From NCBI RefSeq assembly GCF_050320075.1, contig NZ_CP190018.1: a stretch of 64,000 nucleotides of DNA; one strand, written 5' to 3'. The notes beneath the pieces were generated by a model. The model was not told where the DNA came from. It did no database searches and saw only the letters and a list, made by a program, of their open reading frames with translations. This stretch comes from Escherichia coli. GTDB taxonomy: Bacteria; Pseudomonadota; Gammaproteobacteria; Enterobacterales; Enterobacteriaceae. The translations under genes were made by a program, and so were the position numbers. This document shows, piece after piece, positions 50,286 to 61,533 of this stretch; the stretch's first letter is position 1, and each line of letters begins with the position of its first letter.

Positions 50286-50381
50286 ACGTTATCCCCTGCC
50301 TGACCGGGTGGGGGATAATTCACATCTATATATATCAGTAATTAATTAATATTTAGTATGAATTTAGGTAATGACTCCAAC

Positions 50382-53631: not shown

Positions 53632-53640
53632 GAGGCGGCT

Positions 53641-55710
53641 ATGTCTGAGAAAACTTTTCTGGTGGAAATCGGCACTGAAGAGCTGCCACCAAAAGCACTG
53701 CGCAGCCTGGCTGAGTCCTTTGCTGCGAACTTCACTGCGGAGCTGGATAACGCCGGCCTCGCACACGGCACCGTTCAATGGTTTGCTGCTCCGCGTCGTC
53801 TGGCGCTGAAAGTAGCTAACCTGGCGGAAGCGCAACCGGATCGTGAAATCGAAAAACGCGGCCCGGCGATTGCTCAGGCGTTCGACGCTGAAGGCAAACC
53901 GAGCAAAGCGGCAGAAGGCTGGGCGCGTGGTTGCGGTATTACCGTAGACCAGGCTGAGCGTCTGACTACCGATAAAGGTGAATGGCTGCTGTATCGCGCC
54001 CACGTGAAGGGCGAAAGCACCGAAGCACTGCTGCCGAATATGGTTGCGACTTCGCTGGCGAAACTGCCGATCCCGAAACTGATGCGCTGGGGCGCAAGCG
54101 ACGTGCACTTCGTGCGTCCGGTGCACACCGTGACCCTGCTGCTGGGCGACAAAGTCATTCCGGCTACCATTCTGGGCATTCAGTCCGATCGCGTGATTCG
54201 CGGCCACCGCTTTATGGGCGAGCCGGAATTCACTATCGACGATGCCGATCAGTATCCGGAAATTCTGCGTGAGCGCGGTAAAGTCATCGCCGATTACGAA
54301 GAACGTAAAGCGAAGATTAAAGCCGATGCTGAAGAAGCGGCGCGTAAGATTGGCGGTAACGCTGACTTAAGCGAAAGCCTGTTGGAAGAAGTCGCTTCGC
54401 TGGTGGAATGGCCGGCTGTGCTGACCGCAAAATTCGAAGAGAAATTCCTCGCGGTGCCGTCTGAAGCGCTGGTTTACACCATGAAAGGTGACCAGAAGTA
54501 CTTCCCGGTGTATGCGAACGACGGCAAACTTCTGCCGAACTTTATCTTCGTTGCCAACATCGAATCGAAAGATCCGCAGCAGATTATCTCCGGTAACGAG
54601 AAAGTCGTTCGTCCACGTCTGGCGGATGCTGAGTTCTTCTTCAATACCGACCGTAAAAAACGTCTGGAAGATAACCTGCCGCGCCTGCAAACCGTGCTGT
54701 TCCAGCAACAGCTGGGTACACTGCGTGACAAAACTGACCGCATCCAGGCACTGGCTGGCTGGATTGCTGAACAGATTGGCGCTGACGTTAACCATGCTAC
54801 CCGTGCGGGCCTGCTGTCTAAGTGCGACCTGATGACCAACATGGTCTTCGAGTTCACCGACACCCAGGGCGTTATGGGGATGCACTACGCGCGTCACGAT
54901 GGCGAAGCGGAAGATGTTGCAGTGGCGCTGAACGAGCAGTATCAGCCGCGCTTTGCCGGTGATGACCTGCCGTCTAGCCCGGTAGCCTGTGCGCTGGCGA
55001 TTGCTGACAAGATGGATACTCTGGCGGGTATCTTCGGTATCGGCCAGCATCCGAAAGGCGACAAAGACCCGTTTGCGTTGCGTCGTGCCGCACTTGGCGT
55101 ACTGCGTATTATCGTTGAGAAGAACCTCAACCTTGATCTGCAAACGCTGACCGAAGAAGCAGTGCGTCTGTATGGCGATAAGCTGACTAATGCCAACGTG
55201 GTTGATGATGTTATCGACTTTATGCTCGGTCGCTTCCGCGCCTGGTATCAGGACGAAGGTTACACCGTTGACACAATCCAGGCGGTACTGGCACGTCGTC
55301 CGACGCGTCCGGCAGATTTTGATGCCCGTATGAAGGCAGTATCGCACTTCCGTACTCTGGATGCGGCAGCGTCACTGGCGGCGGCAAACAAGCGTGTATC
55401 TAACATTCTGGCGAAGTCTGACGAAGTGCTGAGCGATCGCGTGAATGCTTCTACTCTGAAAGAGCCGGAAGAAATTAAACTGGCGATGCAGGTGGTTGTG
55501 CTGCGCGATAAACTGGAGCCGTACTTTGCTGAAGGTCGTTACCAGGATGCGCTGGTCGAACTGGCAGAGCTGCGTGAGCCAGTTGATGCTTTCTTCGATA
55601 AAGTGATGGTCATGGTTGATGACAAAGAATTGCGTCTCAACCGTCTGACCATGCTGGAGAAACTGCGCGAACTGTTCCTGCGAGTTGCGGATATTTCGCT
55701 GTTGCAGTAA
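53641..55710 (+). CDS. glyS: Glycine--tRNA ligase beta subunit (689 aa)
   Basis: Recognised as GlyS. Confidence 0.95.
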
Positions 55711-55754: not shown

Positions 55755-56007
55755 TCGCTAAATAATACAGCAACCTTTAATAATCTTCTGATGAATAAAG
55801 ATTATCTCATATATTAATTTTATGAGATTTTTTTAGGATTATATCAAGGAGAAGAAACGAACTTATTAAGCTAGAATAGCCACGGGTGCTTGAGACTGTT
55901 TGTCTCAGGTATTCACCGAAAGGCAGACAGAGAAAAGCCCCACCTGACTATAAATCAAAGTGTACTGCACCCATTTTGTTGGACGATGAAATGGAATAGC
56001 CCCTAAT

Positions 56008-56529
56008 ATGTCAAAGCCAAAATACCCTTTTGAAAAGCGCCTTGAAGTCGTGAATCACTACTTCACAACTGATGATGGTTACAGGATCATCTCGGCACGT
56101 TTTGGTGTCCCCCGAACCCAGGTCAGGACATGGGTTGCCCTCTATGAAAAACATGGAGAAAAAGGTTTAATTCCCAAACCTAAAGGCGTTAGTGCTGATC
56201 CAGAGTTGCGTATTAAGGTCGTGAAAGCTGTGATCGAGCAGCACATGTCCCTTAATCAGGCTGCTGCTCACTTTATGCTTGCTGGTAGTGGTTCTGTAGC
56301 CAGGTGGCTGAAGGTCTATGAAGAGCGCGGAGAAGCTGGTTTACGCGCGCTCAAGATTGGCACCAAAAGAAACATTGCAATATCAGTTGATCCAGAAAAA
56401 GCGGCATCAGCATTGGAGCTGTCAAAAGACCGACGCATTGAGGATCTTGAAAGGCAAGTTCGATTTCTTGAAACGCGGCTTATGTATCTAAAAAAGCTGA
56501 AAGCCTTAGCTCATCCCACGAAAAAGTAA
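56008..56529 (+). CDS. insJ: IS150 OrfA (InsJ, 173 aa)
   Basis: HTH protein ending ...LAHPTKK; stop overlaps the A-rich slippery run. Confidence 0.92.
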   Translation: MSKPKYPFEKRLEVVNHYFTTDDGYRIISARFGVPRTQVRTWVALYEKHGEKGLIPKPKGVSADPELRIKVVKAVIEQHMSLNQAAAHFMLAGSGSVARWLKVYEERGEAGLRALKIGTKRNIAISVDPEKAASALELSKDRRIEDLERQVRFLETRLMYLKKLKALAHPTKK

Positions 56530-57377
56530 AAGTACTCAACGAGCTAAGGCAGTTTTATCCTCTTGATGAGCTTCTCAGGGCTGCGGAGATACCGCGCAGT
56601 ACGTTTTATTACCATCTAAAGGCTCTCAGCAAGCCTGACAAGTATGCGGACGTTAAAAAGCGTATTGGTGAGATTTATCACGAGAATAGAGGCCGATACG
56701 GATACCGTAGGGTAACGCTGTCTCTTCATCGAGAAGGGAAACAGATTAACCATAAAGCTGTTCAGCGCCTGATGGGAACCCTCTCACTTAAAGCAGCGAT
56801 TAAGGTCAAGCGATACCGCTCTTACAGAGGAGAGGTAGGGCAAACCGCCCCTAATGTTCTCCAAAGAGATTTCAAGGCTACGCGGCCAAACGAGAAGTGG
56901 GTTACCGATGTTACTGAATTTGTAGTCAATGGGCGCAAGCTGTATTTGTCTCCAGTAATAGATCTCTTCAACAACGAAGTTATTTCTTACAGCCTTTCGG
57001 AAAGACCAGTGATGAACATGGTTGAGAATATGCTCGATCAGGCATTCAAAAAGCTTAATCCTCACGAGCATCCTGTTCTGCACTCTGACCAGGGATGGCA
57101 GTATCGTATGAGAAGATATCAAAATATCCTTAAAGAACATGGTATTAAACAAAGCATGTCCAGAAAAGGCAATTGTCTGGATAATGCTGTGGTGGAGTGT
57201 TTCTTTGGAACCTTAAAGTCGGAGTGTTTTTATCTTGATGAGTTCAGTAATATAAGCGAACTGAAGGATGCTGTTACGGAATATATTGAATACTACAACA
57301 GCAGAAGAATTAGCCTGAAATTAAAAGGTCTGACTCCAATTGAATATCGGAATCAGACCTATATGCCTCGTGTTTAA
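56526..57377 (+). CDS. insK: IS150 OrfB (InsK) transposase frame, expressed as OrfAB fusion by -1 frameshift
   Basis: -1 frame relative to insJ beginning at AAAAAG run (56521-56526); DDE integrase core (...HSDQGWQY..., ...[17 protein letters not shown]...). Confidence 0.88.
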
Positions 57378-57763
57378 CTGTCCAACTTTTTGGGGTCAGT
57401 ACAAAGTGAGGCCCCTCTATGCATAGACACCATAAGGTTAGCCTCTTACTCGTTGGAAATCAACACAGGGGGCTGGGAATGCCGCAGAAATATAGATTAC
57501 TTTCTTTAATAGTGATTTGTTGCACGCTTTTATTTTTCACCTGGATGATAAGTGATTCACTGTGTGAATTGCATATTAAACAGGGGAGTTATGAGCTGGC
57601 GGCATTTTTAGCCTGCAATTTGAAAGAGTAAGAGTCTTCGGCGGGAAGTTATTCCCGCCTTTCTTACGGCGTTGCGCATTCTCATTGCACCCAAATTTAT
57701 TTTTCACAAAAATAATAATAGATTTTATTACGCGATCGATTATTTATTTCCTGAAAAACAAAT

Positions 57764-57790
57764 AAAAAAATCCCCGCCAAATGGCAGGGA
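57764..57790 (-). terminator. cspA rho-independent terminator
   Basis: On minus strand tccctgccatttggcgggga followed by a T-run. Confidence 0.7.
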
Positions 57791-57818
57791 TCTTAGATTC
57801 TGTGCTTTTAAGCAGAGA

Positions 57819-58031
57819 TTACAGGCTGGTTACGTTACCAGCTGCCGGGCCTTTAGCGCCGCTTTCGATGGTGAAGGACACTTTCTGACCTTCGTCCAGA
57901 GATTTGTAACCATCGTTCTGGATAGCAGAGAAGTGTACGAACACGTCTTTAGAGCCATCGTCAGGAGTGATGAAGCCGAAGCCTTTGTCAGCGTTGAACC
58001 ATTTTACGATACCAGTCATTTTACCGTACAT
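57819..58031 (-). CDS. cspA: Major cold-shock protein CspA (70 aa); codon 2 is TAC (Tyr) here
   Basis: [70 protein letters not shown]; RNP motifs KGFGFI and VFVHF. Confidence 0.93.
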
Positions 58032-58173
58032 AGTGTATTACCTTTAATAATTAAGTGTGCCTTTCGGCGATATGGCGTGCTTTACAGATTTTGAAGCGTT
58101 AAAGGAATGTGCACTACGAGGGGTATCAACGATAACTCTTGAAGGGACTTGCCTTACTACACTGCTTTAATGG

Positions 58174-58184
58174 TCTGTACGTCA
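58174..58184 (-). promoter_or_regulatory. cspA 5'-UTR cold box
   Basis: Minus-strand tgacgtacaga within the long cspA leader. Confidence 0.65.
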
Positions 58185-58311
58185 AACCGTTGATGTGCAT
58201 TAAGCCACGCATTGGCGGGTGATGCAACAATTATTTTTCATATTTATGATTAATCGGTTGGAAAACGGTCCTGTCATCAGGACCGTAAACAGCAATAAAG
58301 TGGATAAAAGT

Positions 58312-60873: not shown

Positions 60874-61533
60874 TTACAGCGGGCTTAAGGTAATTTCTAC
60901 ACGGCGGTTTTGCGCCTTACCTTCTGCAGTGCTGTTGCTGGCGATTGGGTTAGCCGGGCCAAGGCCCTGAGTACGGATGCGGCTGGCGTCCACGCCCTGG
61001 GTGATCAACGCGCTGGCAACGGAATCCGCACGCTGCTGGGAGAGACGCATGTTCAGGTCGTGACCACCCGTGCTGTCGGTATAACCAATCACGTTAACCG
61101 CCGTTTTCGGATACTCTTTCAGCACCATTGCCACGCCGGTCAGGGTGTTAGCGCCTGCCGGTTTCAGGGTCGCGCTGCTGCTGTCGAAGGTCACATTGTT
61201 CGGCATATTGAGGATAATGTTATCCCCGCTGCGGGTTACGCTAACACCAGTGCCACGCATTTTGTCACGCAGCTTCGCTTCCTGCACATCCATGTAATAA
61301 CCCACGCCGCCGCCCAGAGCTGCACCCGCTGCTGCGCCAATCAGCGCGCCTTTACCGCGATCTTTCTTCGAAGAAGAGAGCGCACCAATACCCGCGCCAA
61401 CGAGAGAGCCCAGACCTGCGCCGATAGCAGATTTACCTGCTTCGCGTTCGCCGGTGTAAGGGTTAGTTGTGCAGCCAGATACCGCCAGAGCGCCACTCAC
61501 TACGGCGGCAATAAGATAAACACGTTTCTTCAT
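60874..61533 (-). CDS. yiaD: OmpA-domain lipoprotein YiaD (219 aa)
   Basis: Lipobox VSGC, Gly-rich segment, C-terminal OmpA-like domain. Confidence 0.88.
   Translation of the reverse strand: MKKRVYLIAAVVSGALAVSGCTTNPYTGEREAGKSAIGAGLGSLVGAGIGALSSSKKDRGKGALIGAAAGAALGGGVGYYMDVQEAKLRDKMRGTGVSVTRSGDNIILNMPNNVTFDSSSATLKPAGANTLTGVAMVLKEYPKTAVNVIGYTDSTGGHDLNMRLSQQRADSVASALITQGVDASRIRTQGLGPANPIASNSTAEGKAQNRRVEITLSPL

Follow-up and report, generated by a model that had tools for sequence, protein, structure and literature searches.

The mRNA of cspA in Escherichia coli has been described as a thermosensor whose cold form and 37 °C form differ in how well they are translated (Giuliodori et al. 2010, cited in PMC9947658). 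The first nine codons of the gene are required for translation at low temperature (PMC6386945). Fragments of cspA mRNA shorter than 190 nt reportedly fold alike at 37, 20, and 10 °C, and a fragment of 187 nt is reported to resemble closely the full transcript in its cold form (PMC6386945, PMC9947658). PMC9947658 also places CspA binding site 7, with a strong cross-link and footprint, at nt 170-186 of the cspA mRNA. With regard to the protein, methionine aminopeptidase takes off the initiator methionine only when a small residue follows it, namely Ala, Gly, Pro, Ser, Thr, or Val (PMC1397820, PMC3154147). The solved CspA chains 1MJC and 3MEF have 69 residues with Ser2 first, while 7OT5 is a solved 66-residue construct beginning at Met5.

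The reference for this study is CspA of E. coli K-12 (also called CS7.4; b3556; UniProt P0A9X9). To our knowledge, serine at position 2 is the rule in the CspA/B/G/I group. Other cold-shock proteins begin differently: E. coli CspD (MEKG...) and Bacillus subtilis CspB (MLEG..., PDB 1CSP) naturally keep the initiator methionine.

The cspA allele and its locus

The 70-codon open reading frame (plus stop) at 57819..58031 on the minus strand of the window, which is the whole stretch of 64,000 nucleotides analyzed, is cspA, and in the list of open reading frames it begins ATG TAC GGT AAA ATG. The translation has a PF00313 cold-shock domain at residues 5-69 (113.5 bits, Pfam cut-off 27), both the RNP1 (KGFGFI) and RNP2 (VFVHF) motifs are unaltered, and the top NCBIfam family is NF007679 CspA, with 169.4 bits for the Ser2Tyr protein and 172.2 bits for the wild type (cut-off 130). 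The gene order bisC-yiaD-ghrB-yiaF-yiaG-cspA-hokA-IS150-glyS matches that of K-12 and places the gene at the orthologous cspA position. The original prediction, in which the gene was called cspA and its second codon TAC, is thus borne out by the reading frame, the family matches, and the locus; in RefSeq annotation the product of this allele is WP_106475260.1.

Codon 2 (58026..58028, minus strand) is GTA when read directly on the plus strand of the window and TAC, for tyrosine, in the sense of cspA. Sequence comparison gives TCC at this codon in nearly all E. coli, including K-12 MG1655 (NC_000913.3, b3556), so the serine codon that the original prediction had given for K-12 was the right one. 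The change from C to A is at 58027, corresponding to nt 164 of the mRNA and to +5 of the cspA reading frame, and gives Ser2Tyr. When the yiaG-cspA-hokA region was aligned with K-12, this was the sole difference from the 5'UTR through codon 28; the second difference within cspA, at 57945 in codon 29, is synonymous. The two proteins have 69 of 70 residues the same, with residue 2 as the sole change.

The whole cspA mRNA (57764..58191, minus strand) matches Rfam family RF01766, the cspA thermoregulator, from end to end (model positions 1-428), scoring 493.4 bits against a gathering threshold of 78. The transcription start is placed at 58190 (minus strand) by the offset between transcription start and ATG and by comparison with K-12, which has the same 159-nt 5'UTR. 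The Shine-Dalgarno sequence AAGG (mRNA nt 147-150; 58041..58044, minus strand), read directly, is also the same as in K-12.

The names given to this gene in public annotation are less consistent than its sequence. In most complete E. coli genomes, re-annotations of K-12 included, PGAP names cspA [quoted passage not shown] On NF049933, the equivalog model for CspE (cut-off 120), CspA reaches 123-124 bits, compared with 169-172 bits on the CspA subfamily model. It appears that the equivalog match outranks the better-scoring subfamily model and results in systematic misnaming, which is unrelated to Ser2Tyr.

The region downstream of cspA has some features of its own. An IS150 copy (55961-57405) lies beside hokA/sokA in the orientation opposite to that of the K-12 copy, and a 41-nt segment of the hokA leader (57406-57446) is kept in the window and absent from K-12. 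The right-hand junctions of IS150 in the window and in K-12 are 1-2 bp apart, and the window-type junction is a common configuration, shared by 882 of the 5426 complete genomes. This points to one of two histories: separate insertions at a hot spot, or an inversion accompanied by a deletion in the line leading to K-12. A 23-codon reading frame at 57608-57679 on the plus strand, annotated here as a hypothetical protein (WP_212734940.1), corresponds to ysaE of K-12; by annotation it is antisense to hokA, overlaps the hokA 3' end, and lies downstream of cspA.

Carriers of the Ser2Tyr allele and their lineage

Exact matches to a 61-mer around the cspA start codon were counted in complete E. coli genomes. 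Comparison with other E. coli confirmed the contrast drawn in the original prediction, since the K-12-type 61-mer with TCC is exact in 5011 of 5422 genomes while the window type with TAC is exact in 2 of 5421 (about 0.04%). These two complete carriers are Ec-U3, from human urine in Burkina Faso, and YZLc1-3, from chicken feces in China, and RefSeq annotation gives the CspA product of both as WP_106475260.1. A collection of 15 billion proteins has the exact Ser2Tyr protein on 112 contigs, which come from NCBI, ENA, and Logan; counted by index blocks, it has 199 (about 0.2%) versus 116,619 for the wild type. Searches of the literature for the Ser2Tyr (S2Y) cspA allele or for strains YZLc1-3 and Ec-U3 found no mention of them. 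The allele is already public as WP_106475260.1, yet it is undescribed in the literature searched.

A single-base difference that is present in just two of 5421 complete genomes could be a sequencing or assembly error, in which case the true base would be C and the TAC codon an artefact. However, the same base is found in two independently finished genomes that differ in laboratory, host, and continent of origin, in no fewer than three other NCBI assemblies, and on the 112 contigs, which include Logan re-assemblies of raw runs. The allele is always on one flanking haplotype, and window position 58027 is outside any homopolymer. An error at this base is very improbable. The original prediction had offered polymorphism and sequencing error as the two explanations; the first stands, with the same allele and flanks recurring in independent assemblies, and the second is discarded.

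The flanks of the allele are nearly uniform. When assemblies GCA_052874255.1, GCA_038716935.1, and GCA_003007875.1 are compared with the window over 6.2, 3.7, and 3.7 kb, respectively, they show 0, 0, and 1 differences, so the haplotype around Ser2Tyr is the same, with at most one difference, in the assemblies examined; the corresponding comparison of K-12 with the window has 69 mismatches over 4.6 kb. Between the window and Ec-U3 there are no substitutions in the regions compared, and between the window and YZLc1-3 there is one substitution over 12 kb. Ec-U3 and YZLc1-3 also have one lineage-specific glyS allele, WP_106475261.1 (about 53640-55710 in the window). Its accession is the next after WP_106475260.1, and it is likely another allele that was first registered from the Ser2Tyr lineage. 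Because the base agrees across laboratories, platforms, and re-assemblies, and always on one haplotype, the change is best regarded as a clonally inherited substitution. Judging from these sequences, Ser2Tyr most probably arose once. A close relative lacking the substitution was sought among complete genomes for polarizing the mutation, and the next complete genome, with only 97.8% identity over 20 kb, is too distant for this purpose.

Members of the lineage can nevertheless be told apart. The one substitution in the 12 kb is at window position 61382, inside the annotated yiaD coding sequence, where the window and Ec-U3 have G and YZLc1-3 has A, and the yiaD protein accessions of Ec-U3 and YZLc1-3 differ (WP_000747625.1 versus WP_085461392.1). 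Next to an IS1 end, 203 nt that are present in Ec-U3 are missing from the window (50364-50368, with the IS1 end from about 50368); the missing segment falls in a truncated yiaA/yiaB pseudogene. YZLc1-3 is about 980 nt longer across the same 20 kb. These differences look like nested IS1-adjacent deletions in the yiaA/yiaB remnant that are still arising within the clone. An indel on the IS1 side sets the window apart from both finished genomes, so the window represents a third genome of the lineage and an independent assembly.

Tyrosine at codon 2 could also have been imported, through recombination or gene conversion, from a csp paralogue or from another species that has Tyr2. Several paralogues in E. 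coli resemble cspA at their 5' ends, and the surrounding 20 kb are distinctive, as the 97.8% identity of the next complete genome indicates. However, over the 461 bp of cspA with its UTRs, most genomes have a single mismatch to the window (99.8% identity), and a one-base departure from the common E. coli sequence over this length leaves no conversion tract. Furthermore, all other orthologues and cluster members that were examined have serine at position 2. Import is extremely improbable.

Predicted effects on the protein and on the mRNA

Because Tyr2 is not among the small residues that allow methionine aminopeptidase to act, the initiator methionine is predicted to be kept. The computed average mass of the wild type with methionine removed (69 residues) is 7272 Da, and that of the Ser2Tyr protein with methionine kept, as predicted (70 residues, beginning M-Y-G-K), is 7479 Da; were the methionine removed, the Ser2Tyr protein would have 7348 Da. 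Residue 2 is in the N-terminal tail, the domain match begins at residue 5, and the RNP motifs are unaltered; RNA binding by Ser2Tyr CspA is thus expected to be intact. Since other cold-shock domain proteins keep their methionine, a kept methionine is also unlikely to be harmful here.

The original prediction had noted that the part of the mRNA with the change has been tied to the efficiency of translation in cold shock, and this description holds, since the base is both within the nine codons needed in the cold (PMC6386945) and paired in RF01766. The RF01766 consensus and ViennaRNA have a 5-bp hairpin 3' of the AUG (mRNA nt 164-179; 58012..58027, minus strand), which starts 2 nt past the AUG and has the pairs C164-G179, C165-G178, G166-U177, G167-C176, and U168-A175 around the loop AAAAUG; the C164-G179 pair is predicted by ViennaRNA independently. 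With the A allele, A164 opposite G179 is the sole non-standard pair in the 428-nt match, and the closing pair of the hairpin is broken. The mRNA of the window is still a member of RF01766, as one broken pair costs little score. Site 7, converted through the transcription start at 58190, corresponds to 58005..58021 (minus strand; nt 170-186 in PMC9947658). It shares the loop and 3' arm with the hairpin and thereby contains G179, with which base 164 pairs in K-12.

The predicted energetic consequences depend on how much of the transcript is folded. The isolated hairpin is predicted at -4.8 kcal/mol with TCC and -2.4 kcal/mol with TAC at 37 °C, at -8.4 and -5.35 kcal/mol at 15 °C, and at -9.2 and -6.0 kcal/mol at 10 °C. 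In a cold-like 190-nt fragment, TAC is predicted to lower the energy for opening nt 140-178 by 2.5-2.8 kcal/mol at 10-15 °C. For the full-length mRNA at 37, 15, and 10 °C, the gap between alleles in ensemble and opening energies is 0.03-0.24 kcal/mol by equilibrium prediction, a type of folding that does not represent the co-transcriptional cold form of cspA mRNA. A structural switch caused by C164A is not claimed, as the full-length values are near zero and the response is confined to the isolated hairpin and the 190-nt fragment. In these folding models, any effect of C164A would run toward a slightly more open initiation region.

Conservation at the site was examined in cspA loci of E. coli, Salmonella (with cueP downstream), a locus type with an ABC transporter downstream (protein source names Raoultella and Klebsiella), and Buttiauxella, for a total of 10 distinct but related sequences. 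Nucleotide +5 is C in all other cspA examined from these four groups. Synonymous variation is present in 1 of 11 degenerate codons among codons 2-14 and in 28 of 56 among codons 15-70 (Fisher p = 0.018). With 10 related sequences, this pattern is no more than suggestive of constraint at the RNA level on codons 1-14 (57990-58031). In the Buttiauxella gene (MSNKM..., beside the DUF3053/yiaF gene), only three of the five hairpin pairs are possible, so conservation does not demand the complete hairpin.

From this evidence it could be proposed that the mutation is adaptive, with a weaker hairpin, a new codon 2, or both shifting the initiation of cspA translation or its dependence on site 7, and with selection acting on altered CspA levels in cold shock or early growth. 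The substitution is within the nine codons needed for cold translation (PMC6386945), it breaks a curated RF01766 pair, and the former partner G179 is in the strong CspA cross-link site at nt 170-186 (PMC9947658). The lower opening energy of the 190-nt fragment at 10-15 °C, the otherwise invariant site and neighbors, and the wide geographic spread of the lineage would also fit. However, the allele seems to have a single origin and gives no signal of convergence, the full-length mRNA prediction differs by only 0.03-0.24 kcal/mol, and the Buttiauxella gene at the same locus does with three of five pairs. A widespread clone can also carry neutral hitch-hikers. Adaptive change of this kind is unlikely. 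A related proposal treats C164A/Ser2Tyr as naturally occurring regulatory variation in the cspA thermosensor, which would open the hairpin containing the first codons and site 7, alter codon 2 and the processing of the N-terminus, and in this way measurably change CspA output after a shift to cold or during early growth. This is also rather doubtful.

Interpretation and comparison with known cold-shock proteins

The explanation that is very probably correct is a genuine Ser2Tyr substitution of single origin, clonal and nearly neutral, with the window as a member of the lineage. According to this explanation, the change from C to A at +5 would have arisen once and been inherited in a single E. 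coli lineage, whose known hosts are humans and poultry from different continents. Tyr2 would block removal of methionine and give a CspA of 70 instead of 69 residues, as predicted from the rule, and A164, unable to pair with G179, would leave the hairpin without its closing pair and, as predicted, slightly loosen the initiation region and site 7. Fitness and cold-shock induction would, on balance, be affected slightly or not at all. Near neutrality, with little or no phenotype, is the most likely outcome, although the invariant +5 nucleotide, the scarce synonymous variation, and the nine required codons mean that C164A may have a measurable effect.

As it stands, the allele has little significance beyond that of an ordinary strain polymorphism in one of the best-studied bacterial genes. 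Ser2Tyr can serve as a single-base marker of one E. coli clone in poultry and human urine. It is also a ready natural point mutant in the otherwise invariant first codons of cspA, and such a mutant could test the role of the post-AUG hairpin, of Ser2, and of methionine removal in cold-shock expression. If the regulatory proposal were true, a globally dispersed E. coli clone would have a different cold-acclimation behavior.

Compared with K-12 cspA, the gene in the window has the same yiaG-cspA-ysaE/hokA locus and the same 159-nt 5'UTR, and both mRNAs are full-length RF01766 members; the window gene differs by C164A/Ser2Tyr, with loss of the closing hairpin pair and predicted retention of the initiator methionine, and by the synonymous change in codon 29. 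Other rare CspA variants in the same 90% identity cluster, such as D46E, D46N, L45P, A62V, I8S, and S27F, are likewise one-residue changes to a 70-residue protein that is otherwise invariant, and they occur sporadically in surveillance genomes; however, each of these is on 3-10 contigs, while Ser2Tyr is on 112 and is fixed in a dispersed clone. Among the variants listed, no other lies at residue 2, and none but Ser2Tyr also reaches into the translation initiation region. CspD and CspB resemble Ser2Tyr CspA in having a bulky or charged residue 2 on a working cold-shock domain, from which it is clear that the fold tolerates a kept methionine, but they differ from CspA in being other paralogues or orthologues with shorter N-terminal tails.
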